Below, in pieces: positions 128-49,335 of a stretch of DNA of 54,142 bases (the stretch's first letter is position 1; every line of letters starts with the position of its first letter). The notes below the pieces were generated by a model. It saw nothing but the letters and a program-made list of their open reading frames with translations. It was not told the origin of the DNA and did no database searches. The position numbers and the translations under genes were made by a program. Source of the stretch: a virus (taxonomy: Duplodnaviria > Caudoviricetes); IMG/VR virus record IMGVR_UViG_3300022936_000002, positions 1-54,142 of that record; one strand, 5' to 3'.

Positions 128-2482
128 ATCGGTTAAAAACCGGCCGCGCATAAAGTTCGACACCCGCCATTTCGAGCGATACGGTGAATCGTCTTCGAGT
201 GTTTGCGCTTCTGCCGTTCTAAACTGGAGCCATTCATTGCCCACTCGCAGTAAATTAACCGTGGGATAGCGTGCGATGTCGTCAGATGTCACCGTTTCCA
301 GTTCGATCTCATCGAAAAACCAGATATCGAGAGTGTTGTCTGTATCTTCATCTCCCTTCGAGTTTTCCCAATCTGCGAGCACTTCCGCGCATAACCCCAA
401 CGGGGAGGATGAGTCGATCACCGACTGCAGCACATAGTTTTCGTCGCCGATCTCACGGTACAATGCCGCGTTTTCGTGATAACCCCGGCCTCGTCCCGAG
501 ATAGCAAGGTAAACGCCGAGCTTCCCGTGGTCTCTTTCGAGGATCGGCAGGGACGGGATAACGAATATCACCGTATTGCGCGGGAAGGGTACCGTTGACA
601 GCATGTTTTCACGGATGTTCGGCGCCATGTTCGCTATCGGCGGAATCTCGTTGACCGTGATAAATGCTATCGGGTCTCGGAGCACAGCTTGAAAGCGTAT
701 CTTCCCGATCGGCAGCGTCATTACCTTTTTCTCGATGCGGATCTCGTAAGTAAGGCCGTTCAGCGGCAGCGGGATAACATCGCCGATAGCCCACTTTGCG
801 ATTGACGGCATTCCCCAGAACTCGAACGCCTTGCTTTCGGCATGCTCTTTCCTGAGCAGGACTTCCGCGACCTGTCGCAGTCGGTCTTTGCTATCGACTA
901 TCGGGAACGTGTACTCCTTGCTCTCGGTCGATTTTATGCCGGCGAAAAACTGTGCGGTGACAGCCTCATTGTGGTATTCGAGCTCAGGTATCATCCCCGA
1001 TACCCTGACTTCCCGCGGCATTAGCGATTCTTCCTTTAGAAGCACTTCAGCATCGAACGCGGGCATTTCTTCCCCGTCATTATGCGCGCGAAGATCGTCT
1101 GCACTGATCGTTCCGACTGTCGGGCCGTTATCGAGTACGGTTATCAGCTTCCCGTCAACTTCCGCGAGCCTGAATTGATGGTACCGCTGAAGATGTTCGA
1201 TCAGAGCCTTCCGGGTCGTCGCTGTGTGCTCCAAGAAGCCTACCTGGGTTAATCCGGCAGTGTTCGACAGGTCGTAGTCCTCGATACCGACGTCGTTAAA
1301 TAACTCTTCAAGAATGTCGTTAACATCGCTGAATATGTACTCCTGCTCAACCGTGTAGTTCGGCAAATGACCTTGCTTCAGCGTTGTGTCCTGCAGCACG
1401 AATACAGAACATCCGCGCATTGCCGATGTTCTGGAGATACCGACACCGGTTCCCCACCGGCTATCGAGCCACGATATAATTCTGGAGTCCTGGGTCTGCG
1501 TTTCGGTTCCTGTGTAATACCTGATCTCCTCCCCTGGGATAGGAGTGGTCATCATCGTTTCGCCTGTCGCGTCGTCCTTCACCGGTTGGAAGTTGTAGTA
1601 TTCCGATGGGTCGTCGAGGTCTGTCGGATAGCCGATGAATGGATTTACGGCCGACGACATCCGATAGGTGCTATCGGGCCTTGCGAGATTCAGGTACGAG
1701 AAGTAAACACCAATCTTGTCGATATCGGGGATCGCGCTTGACGGGTTGCCGAGCTCGATAGAATTGACGTGCCCGCGCACCAGCACCGTCCGGACCGACC
1801 ACGCGCCATCTGTCGAATGAAATAAAACGGTCTGAGTAGTTAATCCCAGATCACTGTTCGTTTTCACTTCGACGTTTAGATTAGTGGCGCATTTATAGAA
1901 TACTGCAATACGGGTTGTGTCGATCGGTTCGACGGGCTCAACAGGGACGGCCGGGAGTGCTCCTGCAGGGGAAAAGGTTATCGTCCCGCCGTTTCCCAGA
2001 TTAGTGACGGCCAAGCCTTCCGATGCCTCTACATCCGGGAAGATCGCCGCGCCTCCCGCGAGAAATGCGTCTTCCGCCTCGTAGAACTGCTGAGTGTTAA
2101 CCCCGCCGCCGTTTACGCCAGCGAGGATGTCGGTATCGGCCCAGACTCGGAGAAAGTTCGTCACACGTCGCGATACAAGCACGGCAACCGATGTTTTATA
2201 TACGTGCGTCCTTGTCGCCGGCGCCTGCGGGACGCCACCCTTGCCGCCGCTCGAAGGCGTCTCGATGATGTAGTGGTCGATGCCCGTGGAAACCACGACG
2301 TTCCCGCCTAGCCTGACCTTTCCCCAGATGCGAGGGATAAACGCGCCGTAATCCGAGCCGGTGATCCGAATATCGTCGAATTTGCCTTTATCGACAGGCG
2401 GATTCTTGACCTTCGGCGCAAAGATGTACTGAAGGGCCATTGAGCCCGCCATTATCCCGACTTGTATAGCTATTTGAGGCAT
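1..2482 (-). CDS. Large tail tip / host-specificity protein, N-terminal part (continues across the origin into 54015..53852; about 881 aa in total)
   Basis: ATG at 2482 gives MPQIAIQVGIMAGSMALQYIFAPKVK..RITGSDYGAFIPRIWGKVRLGGNVV, a typical tail-tip N-terminus. In frame with ORF 53852..54136. Follows DUF2460-DUF2163-NlpC genes. Missing from the ORF track because it has no stop before the window edge. Confidence 0.85.
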   Translation of the reverse strand, partial: MPQIAIQVGIMAGSMALQYIFAPKVKNPPVDKGKFDDIRITGSDYGAFIPRIWGKVRLGGNVVVSTGIDHYIIETPSSGGKGGVPQAPATRTHVYKTSVAVLVSRRVTNFLRVWADTDILAGVNGGGVNTQQFYEAEDAFLAGGAAIFPDVEASEGLAVTNLGNGGTITFSPAGALPAVPVEPVEPIDTTRIAVFYKCATNLNVEVKTNSDLGLTTQTVLFHSTDGAWSVRTVLVRGHVNSIELGNPSSAIPDIDKIGVYFSYLNLARPDSTYRMSSAVNPFIGYPTDLDDPSEYYNFQPVKDDATGETMMTTPIPGEEIRYYTGTETQTQDSRIISWLDSRWGTGVGISRTSAMRGCSVFVLQDTTLKQGHLPNYTVEQEYIFSDVNDILEELFNDVGIEDYDLSNTAGLTQVGFLEHTATTRKALIEHLQRYHQFRLAEVDGKLITVLDNGPTVGTISADDLRAHNDGEEMPAFDAEVLLKEESLMPREVRVSGMIPELEYHNEAVTAQFFAGIKSTESKEYTFPIVDSKDRLRQVAEVLLRKEHAESKAFEFWGMPSIAKWAIGDVIPLPLNGLTYEIRIEKKVMTLPIGKIRFQAVLRDPIAFITVNEIPPIANMAPNIRENMLSTVPFPRNTVIFVIPSLPILERDHGKLGVYLAISGRGRGYHENAALYREIGDENYVLQSVIDSSSPLGLCAEVLADWENSKGDEDTDNTLDIWFFDEIELETVTSDDIARYPTVNLLRVGNEWLQFRTAEAQTLEDDSPYRSKWRVSNFMRGRFLTDDAMVGHGTDEYAALVTPALRFFELEKEDIGEVINLKAVTGGQ

Positions 2483-33371: not shown

Positions 33372-34472
33372 CTAACGTAAGCAGCCTTTTTCTATCATCC
33401 GGCTGACTATCGCTTCGATAACGCTTGCCGTGAACGCATTGCCGAGCATTTTGTATCTCTGGGTGTCGCTTATCTCTACCAGCCTCCCGTCGAACATCCC
33501 GTACTCCGTCCAGTTGTCGGGTAGCGCTTGTAACCGTTCGCACTCTATCGGCGTTAGCCGGCGGATGCTGCCGTCCTGCCGCGCCCTCGCGTTCAAGGTA
33601 GGTGATACATCGCTTTGCATTTCCCGAAAGCCCTCGCCGTCCTTATGCGTTCTCAAAGTGCCTACCCGGTAAAAATTATTCTTTGCTCCGCCGGTAGCCG
33701 CTAATCCTTCGGCGTCGTAAACCCTCGAACCCTGCTTACCTTCGGCTACCTGTAAAAGCGTCATTGAACTGTGCATCCCTCCGCTGTGTCCGCCTGCTGT
33801 AAGGCAATTAACTGCGGTTTGCTCTGACCTTTCAACAACCCTTGCATCGTCTTTTCCGACAGAAAGTATTTCTCGCTCACATCGCTCTGCAAGATGTCCG
33901 ATAAAGAACACTCGCTCCCTGTTTTGGGGAACCCCGTAGTCCTTTGAGTTAAGTAAAGGGACTTCCACGAAATAACCGAGGTCGGCGAGAACCCCAAGGA
34001 TTCGCTGCATAGTTTTTCCGCCGTCGTGACTGCGTAGGCCTCCAACATTTTCGAGTAGAAAATGTGGCGGTCTTTTGTGTGATAGAATCCGTGCGATCTC
34101 AAAAAACAAAGTGCCTCGGGCTTCATCAAATCCGCGTCGTTTTCCAGCAATTGAGAAAGCCTGGCAAGGAAATCCCGCGATGAGAAAGTCGAAGTCCGCG
34201 AGCTCGCCGGGAACAATCCGAGTTGCGTCGCCGAAGTTCCTGTGTCCGGGGAAGTGGCGGGAATAGACGGCTGATGCGTATTTGTCGATCTCGGCGAATC
34301 CAACACAATGAGCGTGTTGTGGTCGTAGGATGACTTGCTCATTGTCGGCGCTATTTTCGTGTCCAGAATTCCGCCCGGATTGTTGCCCCGCCCTCTCTGT
34401 AGTATTTGCATACGCATCTCCAATCCCTTGCTCTCCCGTGCCGCAACCGCTAAATATCGAAAAATATTTCAT
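33372..34472 (-). CDS. dcm: C5-cytosine DNA methyltransferase
   Basis: FSGCG, AGFPCQAFS, LLENV, PQNRERVF, RRLTPIECERLQ, LGNA. Confidence 0.93.
   Translation of the reverse strand: MKYFSIFSGCGTGEQGIGDAYANTTERAGQQSGRNSGHENSADNEQVILRPQHAHCVGFAEIDKYASAVYSRHFPGHRNFGDATRIVPGELADFDFLIAGFPCQAFSIAGKRRGFDEARGTLFFEIARILSHKRPPHFLLENVGGLRSHDGGKTMQRILGVLADLGYFVEVPLLNSKDYGVPQNRERVFFIGHLAERCEREILSVGKDDARVVERSEQTAVNCLTAGGHSGGMHSSMTLLQVAEGKQGSRVYDAEGLAATGGAKNNFYRVGTLRTHKDGEGFREMQSDVSPTLNARARQDGSIRRLTPIECERLQALPDNWTEYGMFDGRLVEISDTQRYKMLGNAFTASVIEAIVSRMIEKGCLR
33761..34423 (-). CDS. Alternative-frame ORF nested in dcm (M.EcoHK31I beta-like)
   Basis: 220 open codons in another frame of the same strand; ends in CSLSDILQSDVSEKYFLSEK. 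Confidence 0.55.
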   Translation of the reverse strand: MEMRMQILQRGRGNNPGGILDTKIAPTMSKSSYDHNTLIVLDSPRSTNTHQPSIPATSPDTGTSATQLGLFPASSRTSTFSSRDFLARLSQLLENDADLMKPEALCFLRSHGFYHTKDRHIFYSKMLEAYAVTTAEKLCSESLGFSPTSVISWKSLYLTQRTTGFPKTGSECSLSDILQSDVSEKYFLSEKTMQGLLKGQSKPQLIALQQADTAEGCTVQ

Positions 34473-41770: not shown

Positions 41771-42022
41771 TTACGATGTCGCCGCCGATAGATCGGTAGC
41801 TTCGTAAGGAACTGAAATTTTCTCATAGCTATCGACGCCAAGAGCAAGGACAAGCGCGGCCTGTTTGCGCGGGTTTGTCGGCGTGAAATCGCCTGATTCC
41901 CACTGTTGATAAGATGTCAGCGAGAAAACGCCGTTACTATTACGCACAATATCCATAGGCTTTCGGTCGCCTCGGGCTGCCCTTACCAGGGCCGGTGATA
42001 GAACTCTTACGCCTGTGATCAT
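41771..42022 (-). CDS. Cro-like HTH regulator
   Basis: SYQQWESGDFTP XRE-like motif; divergent from the repressor. Confidence 0.7.
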   Translation of the reverse strand: MITGVRVLSPALVRAARGDRKPMDIVRNSNGVFSLTSYQQWESGDFTPTNPRKQAALVLALGVDSYEKISVPYEATDLSAATS

Positions 42023-42201
42023 ATGAGTCTATTATCCATATTATTGGAATGCAGTCAAATGATATTTATGGACTACATGCCAGATTTTGACTATGAGGGG
42101 TTGACGGGAAGGATTATTTGCGCCTATAGTAGGCACGTACTCAAAACAAATTTGAGTTTAAGGCGTTGACTATGACCATTCTTTTGGAAAGAATAGGGCT
42201 A

Positions 42202-42732: not shown

Positions 42733-42781
42733 AAATCTTAAAAATTATAAAAAATGGGGCGCATTGAACACCCCATCAAGA

Positions 42782-43066
42782 TTACTTGTTGATTTTGAAA
42801 GTATCTTGTGAGAAGATTGCAAACCTTTTCGGAAAAAGGAATACTTCCACAATTGTTATGTCCTTATCAACTTTCGTTATAAGGAGCGTACGGGCCTCGG
42901 GGCAGACTTCACCCTGAGGGCAGCAATAATCTACAGTGTCCGGCTCATAGGCCTGCCAGTAGATGCCCGGGGCGCATCCAGCGACGTTAACGATCGGCAC
43001 ATGGCCCGCAAAAGCAAACGCAGATAGACCGAGCACAAGCCCGATCAAAAGAATCAGATGTTTCAT
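42782..43066 (-). CDS. Small secreted peptide precursor
   Basis: Signal peptide MKHLILLIGLVLGLSAFAFA then GHVPIVN; AGGAG RBS. Confidence 0.7.
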   Translation of the reverse strand: MKHLILLIGLVLGLSAFAFAGHVPIVNVAGCAPGIYWQAYEPDTVDYCCPQGEVCPEARTLLITKVDKDITIVEVFLFPKRFAIFSQDTFKINK

Positions 43067-43139
43067 AAATTTCTCCTAATATTGGCTGAGAAGCGATACA
43101 AAATGGTATCCGTAATACTTTAACAGAAGGTTGTCTCCT

Positions 43140-44540
43140 ATGTCAGTACCCCTGAATACACTAACCGATGCAGTAACAATCATTCTCCAGGCGCGAGATG
43201 CGGAGCTAAGCGGTAATTTCTCTTCAATCAAAGACGTACTAGAGCCTATTTGGGACTCCGCAACGCCCCCCGACTTCGCGGAATATGAGCCGGCGATTCG
43301 CGCTGAGTTGATTAAGTACGCGGGGTTATATCTTAATCATGCGGGATGGGCTGAAGGTCGCGTTGGGTACCAGTTGCGCGCGAAAGACGCCCTTACTAAT
43401 GCGGTTGATTTATTCACATCTCTCGACGACGCAGAGAAAACCGCCGATGCCCAGATCCTTCTTGCGAAATGCTATTACTATCTAGGGGAATTGGAGGAAT
43501 TCCGGGACCTTCTAACCATGGTCTCAGGGCGATTCGGGGCCGCGCACCCGGCTACCATCCGAATCCAGCTCAACCAGATCAGCGTACTTCATTTTCAGGG
43601 CGATTATGACTCAGCCGCGGCCGTTCTTCAGTCAGTCGGCGAATCTATCCCGGATTGCGCCGAAGAGCGTCTTGTAATCCAATACCATAACCTCGCAGGC
43701 ATTGTTTTTCAGCATGTTGAGCAATCTGACCGCAGCCTTGCCCACCTTAACAAGGCGGTAGCGTTATCAAAGCATGCCCAAAATCGTACTTATCTTGGAT
43801 TGAATCTCAACGAGATAGCGATTTGGAATCGCCGGCACAAACATTATGCAACGGCTCATGATTACGCCGACCGTGCGATTAAGGTTTTGCCCGATGGACT
43901 GACCGCTCACGCGCACGAAACGCACGCATTGACCTATCTGGACGAAGGGCGCCTCGCGCAAGCTCTTCAGTCTATAGACTTGGCACTCCGTTTCTTATTA
44001 AAAACCGAGAATCACGACGCTCAGATGGAGGCCCTTCTTACTAAATGCCGATGCCTAGCTAAGCTCCGCCGATTTCCCGAATCGATGCGCGTGTACGCAC
44101 AGCTGTCTCAGATTGCGAACGAATGTGGCGGGCATGTTATTGATAAGTACACGCAGGCCTTCTGTGAAATCCTCAGCCTTGGAAAGCCTGAGATCACAGG
44201 CGTAAGAGTGCCGCGGTTTGAGTGCGAATTCTCATACTCGGGCAGGCCCTTATTTTTTAGTGTTAATCGCCGTACAATGCGAGATATGAACATTGAGGCT
44301 TCGAGCGTGGTGCTTACATCCCGGCTTTACACGCCGGTCGATGGACTCAATATCCTTGTCCACGGTGAGAACGGCTTAGAAACCGCCCGCTTGGTTCACA
44401 ATGACCTCTGCACGATCATACAGCGAGCTGATGGCGAGTTTGTTGCTCAAGATGGTCCCGAGGCTGTTGGCGCTATCTTGGGTTACTGCCCCCTCTCTGA
44501 GGCCCAGGGCGACGTAGTTACATTTAAGAAACTTCCATAA
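43140..44540 (+). CDS. TPR-repeat protein with degenerate S24-like C-terminal domain
   Basis: Repeated helical TPR-like motifs (AQILLAKCYYYLGE, YHNLAGIVF, HETHALTYLDEG); beta-rich C-terminus. Confidence 0.75.
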   Translation: MSVPLNTLTDAVTIILQARDAELSGNFSSIKDVLEPIWDSATPPDFAEYEPAIRAELIKYAGLYLNHAGWAEGRVGYQLRAKDALTNAVDLFTSLDDAEKTADAQILLAKCYYYLGELEEFRDLLTMVSGRFGAAHPATIRIQLNQISVLHFQGDYDSAAAVLQSVGESIPDCAEERLVIQYHNLAGIVFQHVEQSDRSLAHLNKAVALSKHAQNRTYLGLNLNEIAIWNRRHKHYATAHDYADRAIKVLPDGLTAHAHETHALTYLDEGRLAQALQSIDLALRFLLKTENHDAQMEALLTKCRCLAKLRRFPESMRVYAQLSQIANECGGHVIDKYTQAFCEILSLGKPEITGVRVPRFECEFSYSGRPLFFSVNRRTMRDMNIEASSVVLTSRLYTPVDGLNILVHGENGLETARLVHNDLCTIIQRADGEFVAQDGPEAVGAILGYCPLSEAQGDVVTFKKLP

Positions 44541-44547
44541 GAATATT

Positions 44548-45006
44548 GTGAAAAATAATATAAACCTCGTCGCAGTTATCTTGATTCTGATCGTTATCGG
44601 CTGTAAATGCCCGGACCCGAAAGACGGATCTTCAACTGGCAGCACTCCGACCGCATCGGATTCGAGCACCCCCAAACTCGAACTGCTTTCGAGCCGCGGC
44701 GAACGCAATAGCTTCAGTCTTAAGATCACCGGGCAGGTGAAAAACATAAGCGGCGAGAAACTTGAGACCGTTAATGTCGTGGTGGACAGCTACGGCGCTA
44801 ATGGCGAGCTCATTTCAAGCGAAACGTCGTTTCTGGAATACAATCCGCTTATGCCCGGACAAACTTCGCCGTTCACAGCTATCGTTCAGGAAAACCCGTT
44901 AATTAAAAACTATAAGATCAATTTCAAGCATTTCGCCGGTGAGCAGATACCACATACCGACTCTCGGCCTAAAGAAAGTCCGAAAGAAACAAAGAAAAAG
45001 AAATAG
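44548..45006 (+). CDS. FxLYD-like lipoprotein
   Basis: Lipobox VIGC; ITGQVKN..DSYGANGELI..LMPGQTSPF. Confidence 0.8.
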   Translation: MKNNINLVAVILILIVIGCKCPDPKDGSSTGSTPTASDSSTPKLELLSSRGERNSFSLKITGQVKNISGEKLETVNVVVDSYGANGELISSETSFLEYNPLMPGQTSPFTAIVQENPLIKNYKINFKHFAGEQIPHTDSRPKESPKETKKKK

Positions 45007-45016
45007 GAGTAAAACA

Positions 45017-45154
45017 ATGAAAGGATTCGTACCAATAGCCGGGATAACCGGGCATACGCCGGTAGTCGGAATAAAAGGGTGGGTGCCGATCAGCAGCTTC
45101 ATCGGATGGGTCCACGACTCCGGGTTCGCCGGTAATACTCCGATAGGTGGATGA
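45017..45154 (+). CDS. 45-aa peptide of five 9-residue GxxP-type repeats
   Basis: AGGAG RBS; KGFVPIAGI/TGHTPVVGI/KGWVPISSF/IGWVHDSGF/AGNTPIGG. Confidence 0.7.
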   Translation: MKGFVPIAGITGHTPVVGIKGWVPISSFIGWVHDSGFAGNTPIGG

Positions 45155-45279
45155 ATTCAGAGATCGAAACAATACGCCGTCATAACGAACGGTTCAATAG
45201 ACGAATGGCGTCGAGGCTCGGCGCTATTTTCGTTGGTGCCGTGGCGTTAGCATGGTATTTGATGGAGTGGCGGTTTTAA
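45151..45279 (+). CDS. 42-aa membrane peptide
   Basis: ATGA overlap with the previous gene; LGAIFVGAVALAWYLM transmembrane-like segment. Confidence 0.5.
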   Translation: MNSEIETIRRHNERFNRRMASRLGAIFVGAVALAWYLMEWRF

Positions 45280-45292
45280 GCGAGATTAAATT

Positions 45293-46132
45293 ATGAAGAA
45301 GTCTATACAGGTCCAAGGAAAAACGATCAATGTTATCCCGCACGGCGAGGCTGACTATATCTGTCTGACGGATATGGTTAAGAGCTTCAAGGGCGGGGAT
45401 CAGCTTATAAAGAATTGGCTGCAAAACAAAAACACCCTCGAATACTTAGGGATTTGGGAGGAATTAAACAATCCAGATTTTAAAATGGTGGAATTCCACC
45501 TAATTAGAACTGAGGCCGGATCTAATAAATTTCTCCTATCCGCCAAGCAATGGACGGAGCGGACGGGCGCGATCGGACTAGAGGCACGGGCCGGCCGCTA
45601 TGGTGGCACGTATGCGCATAAGGACATCGCTCTCGAGTTCGCATCGTGGCTCTCGCCGGCGTTTCGATTGTATGTAATAAAAGAGTTCCAGCGTCTTAAG
45701 GAAGAAGAGACGAAGGGGCGTCAGCCCGGGTGGGACATTAACCGCACACTGGCTAAGGTGAATTACCGTCTGCACACGGATGCCGTTAAAAAACGGTTAG
45801 TGCCGCCGACCGTCACAGCTAAACAGGCCGGTTTTATATATGCCAATGAGGCAGATGTTATTAACGTCGCGGTATTCGGTCAAACGTCCAAGGAATGGCG
45901 AGACGCCAACGCAGCACTCCCCGGCAATATCCGCGACCACGCGTCCGTCGAGCAGCTCTTGGTGCTCGCAAACATTGAGAGCTATAACGCTATACTGATC
46001 GATCAAGGCGTGTCGCAAGCTGCCCGCATACAAGAACTGAATAAGCGCGCCAGGTCTAACTTCAAGTCGCTTACTAGCACGCCGTCGGTAAAGGCCCTAA
46101 AACCGCCTCCATTGCTCCGCTTGAAGGAATAA
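45293..46132 (+). CDS. KilA-N domain protein
   Basis: YICLTDM..GRYGGTYAHKDIALEFASWLSP. Confidence 0.92.
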   Translation: MKKSIQVQGKTINVIPHGEADYICLTDMVKSFKGGDQLIKNWLQNKNTLEYLGIWEELNNPDFKMVEFHLIRTEAGSNKFLLSAKQWTERTGAIGLEARAGRYGGTYAHKDIALEFASWLSPAFRLYVIKEFQRLKEEETKGRQPGWDINRTLAKVNYRLHTDAVKKRLVPPTVTAKQAGFIYANEADVINVAVFGQTSKEWRDANAALPGNIRDHASVEQLLVLANIESYNAILIDQGVSQAARIQELNKRARSNFKSLTSTPSVKALKPPPLLRLKE

Positions 46133-46449: not shown

Positions 46450-47100
46450 ATGATTACACAATCGGGAGTTCATATTCAGAAACAAGGCGGTGAAACGGGC
46501 ACGCCGACCGCCGAGGATATTGCTGTCCATATGGGTCGTATTTGTCGCTATGGCGGGGCTGTCTGGTACACGCTCTTGCCGCACTCTATATTCGTCGGGC
46601 TAATGGCGTACAGGCGTTCCGGTGACGTGCAAAACCTTGTCTGGGGCTTGCTCCACGATGCGCACGAAGTGGTCACGAGCGACGTGCCGCGTCCGTTCAA
46701 ATGCCAGTGTATGAAAGACGAGCAAACTTTCATCGACCAACGTATATATGAGAAGTTTTGCCTGCACGAAACCTTTCCGACGCCGATCAATATGGCGCTC
46801 ATAAAACAGTGCGATAAAGACGCGCTTCACATCGAGGCCGCCGAATTACGGTTGCCGGGCTTTGCCGAGATCGAACTGAAATACGCGAAAGACTACCTAA
46901 ACGAAACCGAGATTTATAACGGCGACGAGGATAGATATTTATTTCAGCGGATCAAAAACAGCGTCTTTCACAAAAACACAATTTACGGGATGGAATCGGC
47001 GGGTGTTCGGATGTTCGCCGAAGTCTTACGAGAAGCGGAAAAGGGTAACTACCGATTAGCGAAAAGAATCGTTGATGGATGGGGATTGCTCGACGGCTAA
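46450..47100 (+). CDS. HD-domain phosphohydrolase (YfbR-like)
   Basis: DIAVHMGRICRYGG..HS..LLHDAHE..DVPRPFK. Confidence 0.85.
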   Translation: MITQSGVHIQKQGGETGTPTAEDIAVHMGRICRYGGAVWYTLLPHSIFVGLMAYRRSGDVQNLVWGLLHDAHEVVTSDVPRPFKCQCMKDEQTFIDQRIYEKFCLHETFPTPINMALIKQCDKDALHIEAAELRLPGFAEIELKYAKDYLNETEIYNGDEDRYLFQRIKNSVFHKNTIYGMESAGVRMFAEVLREAEKGNYRLAKRIVDGWGLLDG

Positions 47101-47103
47101 CAA

Positions 47104-47171
47104 GGGAGGCGCGATAGCGTCAGGCTGAGCACGTCGCCCCCGAGACAAGCGATAGGCCAAGCTCCGAAATG
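47104..47171 (-). repeat. Dispersed ~70-bp element (right of HD gene)
   Basis: CATTTCGGAGCTTGG..TATCGCT..GCTCAG..TCCC; imperfect hairpin. Confidence 0.7.
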
Positions 47172-47210
47172 ATCCTAAACCGGCCCCCGGCAGGAAGAGA
47201 GAAACAAAGT

Positions 47211-47645
47211 ATGGAAAACGAATCATCATTACCCGATACATTTGAAGCGCCGGCCGGAGTGATCTGGACGGTACAAAAAGGCGAGTACGCTAGCACGAAT
47301 GTTAAGACAACGTATATTCGGGTGGATAGAAGCGTATATGGATGGCGCTACATCTGCGTCGCGTTGAACGTCTTTGAAGATTTGCTTACCGCCAAAACAA
47401 TGGAAGCCGCCGCCCTCGAAGCCTTCGACCTGTGCCACAAGAAAGCATCGGATCTGTGTGCCGCATTTGCCGAGGCAAGAACTCAGACACCACTTCCCGC
47501 CGCTCTGACGGAACCGCCGGACGATGATCCTGAATCTCACGCCTGCAGTGGGTGCCAGACTCCGTGCGGATGCTCGAACGGCGTTTGTATGGGGTGTGGA
47601 GATTGTCAGGATCGAGGGGATTGGGGGTATAGACCGAAGAGGTAA
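47211..47645 (+). CDS. Hypothetical protein with Cys-rich C-terminus
   Basis: CSGC..CGC..CMGCGDC. Confidence 0.5.
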   Translation: MENESSLPDTFEAPAGVIWTVQKGEYASTNVKTTYIRVDRSVYGWRYICVALNVFEDLLTAKTMEAAALEAFDLCHKKASDLCAAFAEARTQTPLPAALTEPPDDDPESHACSGCQTPCGCSNGVCMGCGDCQDRGDWGYRPKR

Positions 47646-47648
47646 TTT

Positions 47649-48104
47649 ATGCACGACGTACATTTTTCAAGTGAGACGGTCGAGTGGGCGACGCCTCAGT
47701 ATCTTTTCGACGAGCTGAATAGAGAGTTCGGCTTTACCCTCGATCCGTGTGCAACGCCTGAAAATGCGAAGTGCGACAAGTTTTACACGATCCACGATGA
47801 CGGACTGGTACAGGACTGGTCGGGCGAAACAGTTTACGTTAATCCGCCTTACGGACGAAAGACTGGAGATTGGATTGAGAAGGCTATCGTCGAATCGAGA
47901 AAAGGATCCACGGTCGTCTGTCTGATACCGGCTAAGACCGAAACGCGGTGGTGGGCAAGGTTCTGGGATTACGAACGGCACAGACCTGTCCACGGTGTCC
48001 AAGTGAGATTCATTTTCAAGCGGGTAAAGTTCGGCGAATCAAAGATCAATGCGCCTTTCCCCTGCGCGGTAGTTATTTTTCGGGGGAAGGAATCGAAGAG
48101 GTAG
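47649..48104 (+). CDS. Phage N6-adenine DNA methyltransferase (Dam family)
   Basis: EWATPQ..FTLDPCA..DDGL..VNPPY. Confidence 0.92.
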   Translation: MHDVHFSSETVEWATPQYLFDELNREFGFTLDPCATPENAKCDKFYTIHDDGLVQDWSGETVYVNPPYGRKTGDWIEKAIVESRKGSTVVCLIPAKTETRWWARFWDYERHRPVHGVQVRFIFKRVKFGESKINAPFPCAVVIFRGKESKR

Positions 48105-48107
48105 GAA

Positions 48108-48178
48108 CATTTCAGAGCTTGAGCAATCGCTCAGCACGGACGACGAGGGAGCAACTGGCGCGTTGGTACGCGCTCTAC
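48108..48178 (+). repeat. Dispersed ~70-bp element (left of SPFH gene)
   Basis: CATTTCAGAGCTTGAGC..ACGGACGACGAG..GCGCGT-TGGT-ACGCGC-TCTAC. Confidence 0.8.
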
Positions 48179-48194
48179 AAAACCAAAGGAGAAT

Positions 48195-48989
48195 ATGAAA
48201 AATAAACTATTACTTTTAACAATTATCGGAATGAGTTTTTTAATGACCGGATGTTGGCAGACCGCCAAGGAAGGCACGGTTGAGATTCAAACGATCTGGG
48301 ACAAAATGACCAAGATTATCCGTGCATCCGACGGCGGCGTTTCGTCCTGGAGTACGATTGGCGACGATTACTACACCGTCTCGCTTTTGTCGCAAACCAC
48401 GGAAGCCGACGTGCAGGCGTCGTCGAAGGATAACGCAGGACTCTCTATCAAAATCGCGGTCACGTACCATCTGAAAAATTCGGATGAGGCAATAGAAAAC
48501 CACGTTCGGAAGTTCGGCCTTGTAGAGAAAACCCGCAACGAGCAGTTTTCCCGCGTCCTTGTCGGACAACTTAATACCGAGACAAAGAACGCTATTGCCG
48601 AATACGACGCGTATGGCATTCTCGCGAATCAAGAAGCTATTCAATCTCGAATATCGGAGAAAATGAAGCCGATACTCGAAACGCAGCTCGGACAGGAAAT
48701 CGAATCTATCCAGATAATCGGACGGCCGGATTTTGTCGATGATCGAATCGAACAGGCCGCGTCACAGGTTGTTGCTAATCAGAAACTCAAGCAAGCCGCC
48801 GAAGCCGGACTGGAGGCGTCGAAGGTTAATGCTCAACAGAAACAGGTCGAGGCCGCGACTTATGCGAACCCCGCGCTGTTAGAGATTCGCAAACTCGAAT
48901 TACAGGTGGAGATAGCCCGCGAATGGCGGCAGCATTCTGGCACGCTCGTATTCGGCGGGAACAGTCCTGTAATGGTGGGAGATAAATAG
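48195..48989 (+). CDS. SPFH/band-7 domain lipoprotein
   Basis: Lipobox MTGC; ASSKDNAGLSIKIAVTY; C-terminal Ala/Gln/Glu coiled coil. Confidence 0.75.
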   Translation: MKNKLLLLTIIGMSFLMTGCWQTAKEGTVEIQTIWDKMTKIIRASDGGVSSWSTIGDDYYTVSLLSQTTEADVQASSKDNAGLSIKIAVTYHLKNSDEAIENHVRKFGLVEKTRNEQFSRVLVGQLNTETKNAIAEYDAYGILANQEAIQSRISEKMKPILETQLGQEIESIQIIGRPDFVDDRIEQAASQVVANQKLKQAAEAGLEASKVNAQQKQVEAATYANPALLEIRKLELQVEIAREWRQHSGTLVFGGNSPVMVGDK

Positions 48990-49335
48990 TATGGGCAAGA
49001 TTGTATTGTTCTGGCTCATTGGAGTACTTAGCCTTGTAATCCTTTTCGGCGGGGGTGGGTACTACTTTTTCTGGCTATTCCGAAAAGGCAAAAAGGAGAA
49101 ATTATGGTAGAAGAAACCGACGATATTCACACTACGCTCGAGACTGAGCCGGAAACAAAGGTAATGGATGTGACCGACAAGGACGAGGCGACGGACTGCA
49201 TTCCGAACTCATTTACCGGCTCGATCTACGACAAGAAACCGGCGGCAGGAGAAGCTGATGGTGAAGCCGGTCAAGCGGTAGCATAAAGGCAAGGAGGCGG
49301 GAGGCGTCTAAAACGGCGTCTCCATTCTCTACGAG

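Follow-up and report, generated by a model that had tools for sequence, protein, structure and literature searches.

To understand what a small exported protein might be doing between the repressor gene of a phage and the gene for a tetratricopeptide repeat (TPR) protein, we analyzed positions 42,782 to 45,154 of a complete virus record (IMG/VR IMGVR_UViG_3300022936_000002; Duplodnaviria, Caudoviricetes), whose 54,142 bp, hereafter the window, carry direct terminal repeats and are 100% complete by the CheckV estimate. An initial annotation, made from the sequence alone, had read here a signal-peptide gene beside cI, with GHVPIVN as the mature N-terminus of its product, transcribed divergently from a TPR gene, and the coordinates of all of these features (Table 1) bear out that arrangement; the start codons of the small gene (open reading frame [ORF] 94) and of the TPR gene, at 43066 and 43140, respectively, are separated by 73 bp. 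We put at roughly 55% the probability that ORF94, the TPR protein, and an XRE-type repressor make up a peptide-sensing switch, with the TPR protein acting on the repressor although it has no helix-turn-helix (HTH) domain, and that this is a conserved Acidobacteriota cassette lodged at the lysis/lysogeny control point of a temperate phage of soil Acidobacteria.

Conserved linkage of the exported protein and the TPR protein

The association of the two genes was examined at 52 loci (8 genome loci, 43 metagenome loci, and the window), by looking for an ATG-initiated ORF of 40-130 residues on the opposite strand, with a signal-peptide-like N-terminus and a start no more than 450 bp upstream of the TPR gene; 50 of these loci, having at least 330 bp of upstream sequence, were assessable. 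Signal peptides and their cleavage sites were called throughout by an A-x-A rule combined with an in-house hydrophobicity heuristic. A divergent signal-peptide ORF of 61-94 residues was present at 48 of the 50 assessable loci, against a background of 25 among 908 small ORFs elsewhere in the same DNA. The misses are L020, the one full locus that has no precursor gene, and L030, in which the copy is frameshifted. At L020 (2563-3300, + strand), a 245-residue multi-pass membrane protein is encoded immediately upstream of the TPR gene, where the precursor gene would be expected. In a second sample, drawn from genomes of the family (L053-L056, L059, L061-L067, L070, and L071; L058 was not assessable, L057 repeats L002, and the unpublished L060 was excluded), a divergent signal-peptide ORF was found at 14/14 assessable loci. 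The linkage of peptide gene and TPR gene, on which the initial annotation had made its proposal depend, is therefore strongly conserved. Within the second sample, the L065 ORF has the signal peptide and no heptad motif, and the L064 TPR homolog (431 residues), which has no LexA-like domain, still has a divergent heptad-bearing precursor, which makes the TPR part the constant partner. Neither another conserved output or immunity gene nor a secretion apparatus was seen with the cassette in the inspected loci.

All named loci belong to Acidobacteriota, in agreement with the probably diderm host that had been anticipated, and all eight species-genome loci come from metagenome-assembled genomes that have Acidobacteria, Acidobacteriota, or Pyrinomonadaceae in their titles. 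When the phylum was sampled evenly, 5 of 201 genomes contained a TPR-protein match at E ≤1e-30; in the family to which the L002 genome belongs, a match was present in 69 of 101 genomes (66 of 98 without the unpublished G215, G219, and G233), with up to 8 matches each, the weaker of which cover the TPR part only and include other architectures.

Multiplied copies were also observed. The small precursor gene is tandemly duplicated next to one TPR gene at L025 (2433-2928, - strand); two proteins of the precursor family, P0166 and P0168, have neighboring locus tags on one contig; and L059 (G253:C4), together with G253:C4:1087654-1092521, comprises two full TPR-precursor cassettes head to tail in less than 5 kb, which differ in their heptads (GDGSIPTGG versus GEGDGTTHSGG).

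The precursor family and its heptad

A search with the single ORF94 sequence retrieved only ORF94 itself. A profile of 18 relatives, from which ORF94 had been left out, matched its residues 1-36 with a probability of 97.3% (E 2.6e-11). In a large protein collection, the family profile retrieved 106 clusters; the named ones are all hypothetical proteins of Acidobacteriota or Pyrinomonadaceae, and none of them carries a Pfam domain. The protein Atlas held no usable match for ORF94 (the Atlas model there has a predicted local distance difference test [pLDDT] score of 0.45), and none of the three cassette proteins was matched by PADLOC.

Alignment of 46 distinct precursors showed Met1, Ala20, and Gly21 to be invariant, within a layout that comprises (i) an Ala-ending signal peptide; (ii) the block [D/E]-G-x-[I/F/V/T]-P-[I/M]-x-G; (iii) a variable Thr/Ser/Pro-rich middle; and (iv) a hydrophobic aromatic tail, the final residue of which is Phe in 34 of the 46. 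At 48 of the 50 assessable loci, the signal peptide has a basic n-region, an uncharged hydrophobic core, and an A-x-A site. Conservation within the family is highest at the mature N-terminus, G-x-x-P-I-x-G, with G-x-x-P directly behind the signal peptide in 34/46 precursors, and the GHVPIVN terminus called by the initial annotation coincides exactly with this block. ORF94, at 94 residues, compares with 61-89 residues in its relatives and 50-51 in L063 and L064. A second, internal heptad copy is present in 6 of the 46 precursors, and the L054 precursor has three copies, as EGDMGSGGYTC-type units. The mature part contains no Cys in 23 precursors, two in 19, and four in 4.

The class of the peptide tracks the clade of the receptor rather than its architecture: the HTH-less phage protein, at 30-37% identity to HTH-bearing homologs, has a G-x-x-P-I heptad, and an HTH-less chromosomal clade, 23-24% identical to the phage protein, has the heptad G-[DEN]-M-G-x-G.

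Other readings of these proteins were rejected on the basis of their sequences. ORF94 has a VAGC sequence that could pass for a lipobox; in most of its relatives, Asp or Glu separates the hydrophobic core from the Cys, and in two clades this Cys is absent. A double-glycine leader does not suit the precursors, in which the hydrophobic core of the leader is long and many members have no GG; nor does PEP-CTERM or another C-terminal sorting signal, as the C-terminus has neither a long transmembrane segment nor a basic cluster.

A TPR superhelix joined to a LexA-like pseudo-protease domain

In the AlphaFold model of the phage TPR protein (pLDDT 82.1), a 17-helix superhelix is connected through a disordered linker (residues 330-352) to a beta domain. 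Polar residues of the phage protein that are conserved in the family include Q78, R80, K82, H183, N184, N224, N225, H257, D260, and K302. The fold matches of the superhelix in the PDB are peptide-binding TPR superhelices (LGN/Pins, Rap, and MalT). PHROGs offered only two families of unknown function for the protein.

The initial annotation had seen a degenerate S24-like C-terminus on this protein of about 466 residues, and this is supported at the level of the fold. Modeled separately from 19 sequences, the beta domain reached a pLDDT of 86.9, and its fold was examined in three ways: (i) a profile of the domain, run against PDB sequences, gave LexA as the top 9 of 13 matches (best E 0.028); (ii) Foldseek returned the C-domains of LexA, lambda CI, and UmuD as leading matches (best E 2.7e-3, none at or below 0.001); and (iii) VIA-align superposed it on the LexA C-domain with Z 7.8 (root-mean-square deviation 3.9, 97 aligned residues), where a Z below 8 may mean a common arrangement, and on the C-domain of the phage 186 repressor with Z 6.8-7.0. 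These three lines of evidence, each moderate, agree on a LexA C-domain fold. In the structure alignment, as well as in alignments A1 and A2, the position of LexA Ser119 is occupied by an invariant Met and that of Lys156 by Gly or Ala. The C-terminal domain is therefore S24-like, yet a predicted pseudo-protease, and no S24 member by activity.

No DNA-binding domain was found in the phage TPR protein, as had been noted from its sequence. In each of the 13 nearest homologs (533-586 residues; 27-37% identity by BLASTP, 30-33% in alignment A1), the TPRs are separated from the beta domain by an insert of ~95 residues that the phage protein does not have. This insert resembles a Fis-type HTH, matching HTH_8 weakly (E 0.0024, 18 bits, cut-off 22) and the C-terminal HTH of RtcR/PspF-type models at E 0.001. 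It places the HTH of these homologs C-terminal to the TPRs; in the phage protein, TPR helices begin at residue 7. Among the best 150 matches of an exhaustive profile search, three length classes were apparent: proteins of ~550-600 residues that match the whole profile; proteins of ~460-500 residues with two matching stretches and no HTH; and proteins of ~420-440 residues in which only the TPRs and the HTH are matched, without a beta domain.

A predicted XRE-type repressor as the third gene

The 188-residue cI-like protein matches Pfam HTH_31 weakly (E 0.021, short of the cut-off), and the Pfam scan shows no S24 domain on it, as the initial annotation had claimed. At most loci, an XRE-type ORF of 138-194 residues lies on the TPR strand, upstream of the precursor gene. 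When 18 of these acidobacterial cassette proteins were combined into a profile, it matched residues 22-151 of the phage protein over 118 columns (probability 92.1%, E 6.1e-7), with the match extending into the helical part behind the HTH. The cassette therefore comprises a predicted repressor, an exported small protein, and a TPR protein, and the phage repressor is the cassette's own. At L019, L021, L024, and L048, a different small ORF takes the place of the XRE gene; judging by their sequences, these replacements are read as ribbon-helix-helix proteins, and the one in L021 has no Pfam match.

Promoter-like sites point in both directions within the region 42022-42166 (42101-42130, + strand; 42058-42031, - strand), and the 188-residue HTH protein therefore occupies the cI position of a temperate phage. 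It is a predicted repressor, a role that its position, divergent from the early lytic operon, fits.

Phage-like and chromosomal carriers

The cassette was found in the lysogeny modules of three phage-like elements, namely the window phage, L021, and the G286 prophage, and the TPR proteins of all three are without the Fis-type HTH of most chromosomal homologs. The L021 contig is phage-like in having an integrase (Phage_integrase, E 3.4e-9) and small leftward early ORFs; its precursor is close to ORF94, with four Cys in the same pattern, and its HTH-less TPR protein has 472 residues. In G286, the cassette has an integrase gene (E 1.8e-22) on one side and, on the other, genes for a cI/cro pair of HTH_3 proteins, after which come methylase and further phage-like genes; the counterpart of the cI-like protein there matches HTH_3 at 5.9e-11, and the TPR protein (478 residues, no HTH) has a beta domain matched with a probability of 93.3%. 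The G286 prophage heptad is DGQIPIGG, and two chromosomal cassettes of the same genome have DGNMGSG and DGHMPSGG, the latter twice in one precursor. The G286 prophage (L066) also encodes, at 755-1135 (- strand), a 126-residue XRE-like ORF, which overlaps the TPR stop codon in the same operon, has no Pfam match, and is additional to the cI-like XRE gene across the precursor gene. Two IMG/VR scans gave 124 and 56 pattern matches, none of which was confirmed as a further viral contig with the TPR protein.

The cassettes L008, L009, and L053 are chromosomal copies in synteny, each having the same oxidoreductase and DinB-like genes as neighbors. From these syntenic copies and the prophage cassettes, we therefore infer that the system is native to the hosts and was borrowed by phages.

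A heptad concatemer in the TPR operon

Downstream of the TPR gene, a 45-residue ORF encodes Met-Lys followed by five 9-residue units (GFVPIAG-IT, GHTPVVG-IK, GWVPISS-FI, GWVHDSG-FA, and GNTPIGG), without a signal peptide. Four strict matches to the motif fall within this concatemer, versus 123 in the 866,276 six-frame residues of all analyzed DNA. Tandem Repeats Finder detected no DNA-level repeat in the ORF, so the periodicity is maintained at the protein level. A reading of the units as RTX-type nonapeptide repeats was rejected, the Asp pattern being missing. The presence of this predicted cytoplasmic concatemer in the TPR operon is the best hint that the heptad is recognized inside the cell.

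Proposed mechanism and its alternatives

In the mechanism that we propose, a temperate phage would have brought the point at which it controls lysis and lysogeny under a cassette that belongs to Acidobacteriota (Pyrinomonadaceae and relatives). After export by Sec, the small protein would be trimmed, leaving the heptad at the new N-terminus, and the heptad peptide would build up with the density of element-carrying cells, re-enter the cell, and bind the concave face of the TPR superhelix. The HTH-bearing chromosomal TPR proteins, which resemble a LexA/CI-type HTH-linker-C-domain module with a TPR sensor attached, would act directly on DNA, with the peptide altering their own DNA binding. As the phage TPR protein has no HTH, we propose that it acts by protein contact on the separate XRE repressor, which, the HTH having been lost, it would sequester or release according to peptide occupancy, in the manner of RappLS20 and RcopLS20 (see below). 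The LexA-like domain would supply dimerization, the 45-residue concatemer would engage the TPR receptor from inside the cell as a multivalent ligand or mimic, and the outcome would be a density-dependent bias in the lysis/lysogeny decision. The Ala-Gly self-cleavage sites of LexA-type proteins resemble the unit formed by Ala and G-x-x-P at the precursor cleavage site, so the dead S24 cleft could be the binding site; we rank this idea below the TPR groove because L064 and L065 have no LexA-like domain and yet retain the exported partner. A co-fold of the TPR protein (A1) with mature ORF94 (A4, residues 21-94) scored 0.00, which, without controls, speaks neither for nor against binding.

Several observations weigh against a peptide-sensing switch. 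A peptide of a diderm host would have to cross the outer membrane twice, and no importer is identified; peptide binding, re-uptake, and the effect on lysogeny are all predictions. The two or four Cys in 23 of the 46 precursors suggest disulfide-bonded periplasmic products rather than linear imported peptides, and the small proteins are conserved over their full length within a clade, tail included, so that no short released peptide is singled out. The correspondence of peptide class with clade, as well as the different heptads of paralogs, is also explained by co-inheritance of neighboring genes. The likeness of the superhelix to known receptors is generic: by sequence, kinesin light chain (2e-13) outscores Rap and NprR (2e-5 to 6e-3), and Foldseek puts Rap at rank 43, behind LGN and consensus TPRs. 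Within the analyzed DNA, the concatemer was seen in this phage only, and a repeat search found no operator common to the cI/cro and ORF94/TPR intergenic regions.

In another view, which we consider plausible but unlikely, the TPR(-HTH) and XRE proteins are local transcription factors and the small secreted protein is their regulated product, which is not sensed back; its own role, as a surface, membrane-active, or bacteriocin-like factor, would be played outside the cell. Divergent pairs of a regulator and its target are common, the HTH-bearing homologs could bind the shared intergenic region, and mature proteins of 40-75 residues, conserved end to end within clades and having an amphipathic/aromatic tail and frequent Cys pairs, would suit such a product. 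However, a further conserved output or immunity gene is missing from the cassette, the pairing is kept in the window phage, L021, and G286 even though their TPR proteins have no HTH, and a motif that works only outside the cell would hardly account for multiplied heptads or for a cytoplasmic concatemer next to a cytoplasmic TPR protein. The cytoplasmic location of both the TPR protein and the concatemer would also accommodate control coupled to secretion, in which the TPR protein binds the unexported precursor or the concatemer, and export frees it for the repressor; type III secretion provides a precedent, in TPR chaperones that double as co-regulators. The cassette precursors, however, have ordinary Sec-type signal peptides, with no sign of regulated export and no linked secretion apparatus, and we find this explanation quite improbable.

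A further proposal starts from the LexA-like domain, whose best fold matches are the C-domains of LexA, lambda CI, and UmuD, several of them solved on RecA filaments: the dead domain would dock on activated RecA filaments and confer SOS sensitivity on a cI-like repressor lacking S24, the small protein being incidental. Such a DNA-damage input could coexist with peptide sensing; as the explanation of the cassette it is very improbable, since the L064 and L065 homologs keep the cassette without a LexA-like domain, L008, L009, and L053 sit in syntenic housekeeping contexts with no obvious need for SOS coupling, and the conserved exported partner is left unexplained. We give almost no credence to a chance juxtaposition of unrelated morons beside the repressor. 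ORF94 does have its own promoter-like site and terminator, and its single-sequence search yielded no homolog, but the arrangement at 48/50 and 14/14 loci contradicts this idea, as do the profile matches to ORF94 (E 2.6e-11) and to the XRE protein (E 6.1e-7).

Gene layout and neighboring genes

Leftward genes span positions 1 to 42022 of the window and include a large terminase (E 9.7e-44), a tail protein, methylases, and an AAA_24 ATPase; the rightward block begins at 42166. For the 83-residue ORF that opens the leftward block, no Pfam family scored above its cut-off, and its position suggests a Cro-like role. In the GenBank phage collection, a blastn search with the 'distant' setting gave as its sole match 89 nt beneath the KilA-N gene. 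Among sequencing runs, two DNA data sets and no RNA data set were listed as holders.

Table 1. Coordinates of the cassette genes, their parts and signals, and other features of the window
Feature	Position	Strand	Remarks
83-residue small ORF, Cro position	41771..42022	-	Opens leftward early block; divergent from cI-like gene
XRE-type cI-like protein, 188 residues	42166..42732	+	Alternative start ATG 42172; no S24 domain
Terminator-like hairpin and T-run	42753..42777	-	Immediately 3' of ORF94 stop; 10 pairs, 5 G-C, then TTTTATAATT
ORF94 precursor, 94 residues	42782..43066	-	Signal peptide, heptad, four Cys, and hydrophobic tail
ORF94 heptad GHVPIVN, residues 21-27	42986-43006	-	Directly after predicted cleavage site
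ORF94 signal peptide, residues 1-20	43007-43066	-	MKHLILLIGLVLGLSAFAFA; predicted cleavage AFA^GHVPIVN
Shine-Dalgarno AGGAG of ORF94	43073..43077	-	7 nt 5' of ATG
ORF94 promoter-like site	43117..43146	-	CTGACA-18-TAAAGT with TG; consensus match only
TPR gene	43140-44540	+	466 residues from ATG; 469 from TTG 43131
TPR superhelix, residues 7-346, ~17 helices	43140..44177	+	Pfam TPR_12 E 7.7e-13, TPR_19 E 4.9e-8
LexA/S24-like beta domain, residues ~355-466, plus stop codon	44202..44540	+	Without catalytic Ser/Lys
Lipoprotein-like ORF, 152 residues	44548..45006	+	Lipobox ...VIGC; 8 nt after TPR stop; no Pfam family
Heptad-concatemer ORF, 45 residues	45017..45154	+	AGGAG 7 nt before ATG, spacing as in ORF94; 11 nt after lipoprotein gene
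42-residue ORF	45151..45279	+	ATG overlaps concatemer stop (ATGA); C-terminal hydrophobic helix
Integrase-like ORF, 374 residues	50113-51237	-	Phage_int_SAM_5 22.6 bits (cut-off 22.3); Int_N 26.8 bits (cut-off 27)

The lipoprotein-like ORF between the TPR gene and the concatemer lies outside the conserved cassette, with no counterpart after the TPR gene in L021; its Atlas neighbors are unnamed clusters, one of which has DUF2393 on 17% of its members, and its product is a candidate surface or exclusion factor of the lysogen. The 42-residue ORF is translationally coupled to the concatemer and contains a terminator-like hairpin (45232-45251). Further along the same strand, a KilA-N domain protein (45293-46132; Pfam E 4.6e-24; PHROG transcriptional regulator, E 1.4e-50) is a full-length match to the PADLOC candidate defense model PDC-S22 (E 3.3e-123), and the accessory genes at 46450-49000 encode an HD-type deoxynucleotide phosphatase-like protein (PHROG 318, E 3.9e-17), a Dam methylase (E 1.1e-27), and an SPFH/Band 7 protein (E 1.4e-11). 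On the - strand, positions 33372-34472 hold a gene for a C5 cytosine methylase.

Relation to known systems and implications

The RRNPP signature, as given in a detection study (PMC10075063), combines a propeptide of 10-100 residues, a Sec/signal peptidase I signal, a receptor of 250-500 residues, TPRs, and adjacency of the two genes. The phage pair agrees with the signature, as worded there, in all five respects (94 residues, a heuristic Sec signal, 466 residues, TPR_12 at E 7.7e-13, and 73 bp between the genes); most chromosomal homologs, at 507-597 residues, exceed its receptor range. RRNPP effector domains (an HTH or a 3-helix bundle) are N-terminal to the TPRs, whereas the phage protein has none and the HTH of its homologs follows the TPRs. 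Because the domain order differs and kinship with RRNPP receptors is not established, we do not file the phage pair as an RRNPP member. Of the RRNPP/arbitrium-type architecture that the initial annotation had invoked, what holds is thus an exported propeptide whose gene lies beside that of a cytoplasmic TPR protein, with an S24-less repressor as the neighbor, in a phage of a diderm host; a kinship with RRNPP or arbitrium receptors does not follow.

The arbitrium system (AimR-AimP) of Bacillus phages is similar in pairing a phage-borne exported propeptide with a cytoplasmic TPR protein beside the lysis/lysogeny switch. AimR carries its HTH at the N-terminus, and the hexapeptide signal is matured from the C-terminal end of AimP. 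In the window, by contrast, the receptor is HTH-less, the genes are divergent, an XRE protein is the third gene of the unit, and the conserved block is N-terminal. Rgg/SHP systems of streptococci have divergent peptide and receptor genes, hydrophobic peptides ending in GG, and an Rgg with an N-terminal HTH; divergent genes and hydrophobic GG-ending peptides would be features in common. According to the detection study, SHPs have no Sec signal peptides and mature from the C-terminus (PMC10075063). Measured against that description, the cassette precursors differ in bearing Sec-type signals and an N-terminal conserved block. The last ~112 residues of the TPR protein share the fold of the LexA, lambda CI, and 186 CI C-domains (peptidase S24 fold) and differ from them in that Ser and Lys are replaced (by Met and by Gly/Ala) and that, in the phage copy, the domain is joined to a TPR sensor rather than to a repressor HTH. 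The C-domain of phage 186 CI, like the domain here, is not known to be a self-cleaving protease, and it serves oligomerization. Cytoplasmic TPR-receptor peptide signaling, phage arbitrium included, has been described for Firmicutes.

On plasmid pLS20 of Bacillus, the HTH-less TPR anti-repressor RappLS20 binds the repressor RcopLS20, and the exported Phr*pLS20 peptide releases the repressor (PMC7430634). The cassette shares with pLS20 an HTH-less TPR protein on a mobile element, a separate repressor, and an exported peptide; it differs in its diderm host, the LexA-like pseudo-protease C-terminus, and a conserved peptide block at the mature N-terminus, and the similarity to RappLS20 is only that of TPRs in general.

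The RRNPP detection study covered Firmicutes and viruses (PMC10075063). No paper linking RRNPP with Acidobacteria was found in the searched library. Literature on RRNPP or arbitrium in Gram-negatives and on RRNPP-like systems in phage contained nothing on the cassette at the level of listings and abstracts, and abstracts on quorum sensing in Pyrinomonadaceae and in Acidobacteria prophages or lysogeny did not describe it. Tentatively, and with slightly less than even confidence, we suggest that the cassette represents a new Acidobacteriota peptide-signaling family, often present in several orthogonal copies per genome, from which phages captured HTH-less versions for an arbitrium-like decision. 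Such a family would unite a Sec-exported precursor as the source of a G-x-x-P-I-x-G-type peptide, a cytoplasmic TPR receptor with an attached LexA-like pseudo-protease, and an XRE repressor as the partner, and the concatemer of one phage would be an internal agonist or jammer.

If this is true, it would be the first peptide-receptor communication system of such a type in a diderm phylum and its phages, and its conservation in a soil phylum that is abundant and difficult to culture would carry peptide communication, among phages as well as among cells, into the diderms. The cassette would supply a concrete ligand motif together with its receptor, the combination of TPRs with a dead S24 domain would be a new pseudo-enzyme architecture, and the heptad concatemer suggests a new route by which a phage may manipulate peptide signaling from within the cell.

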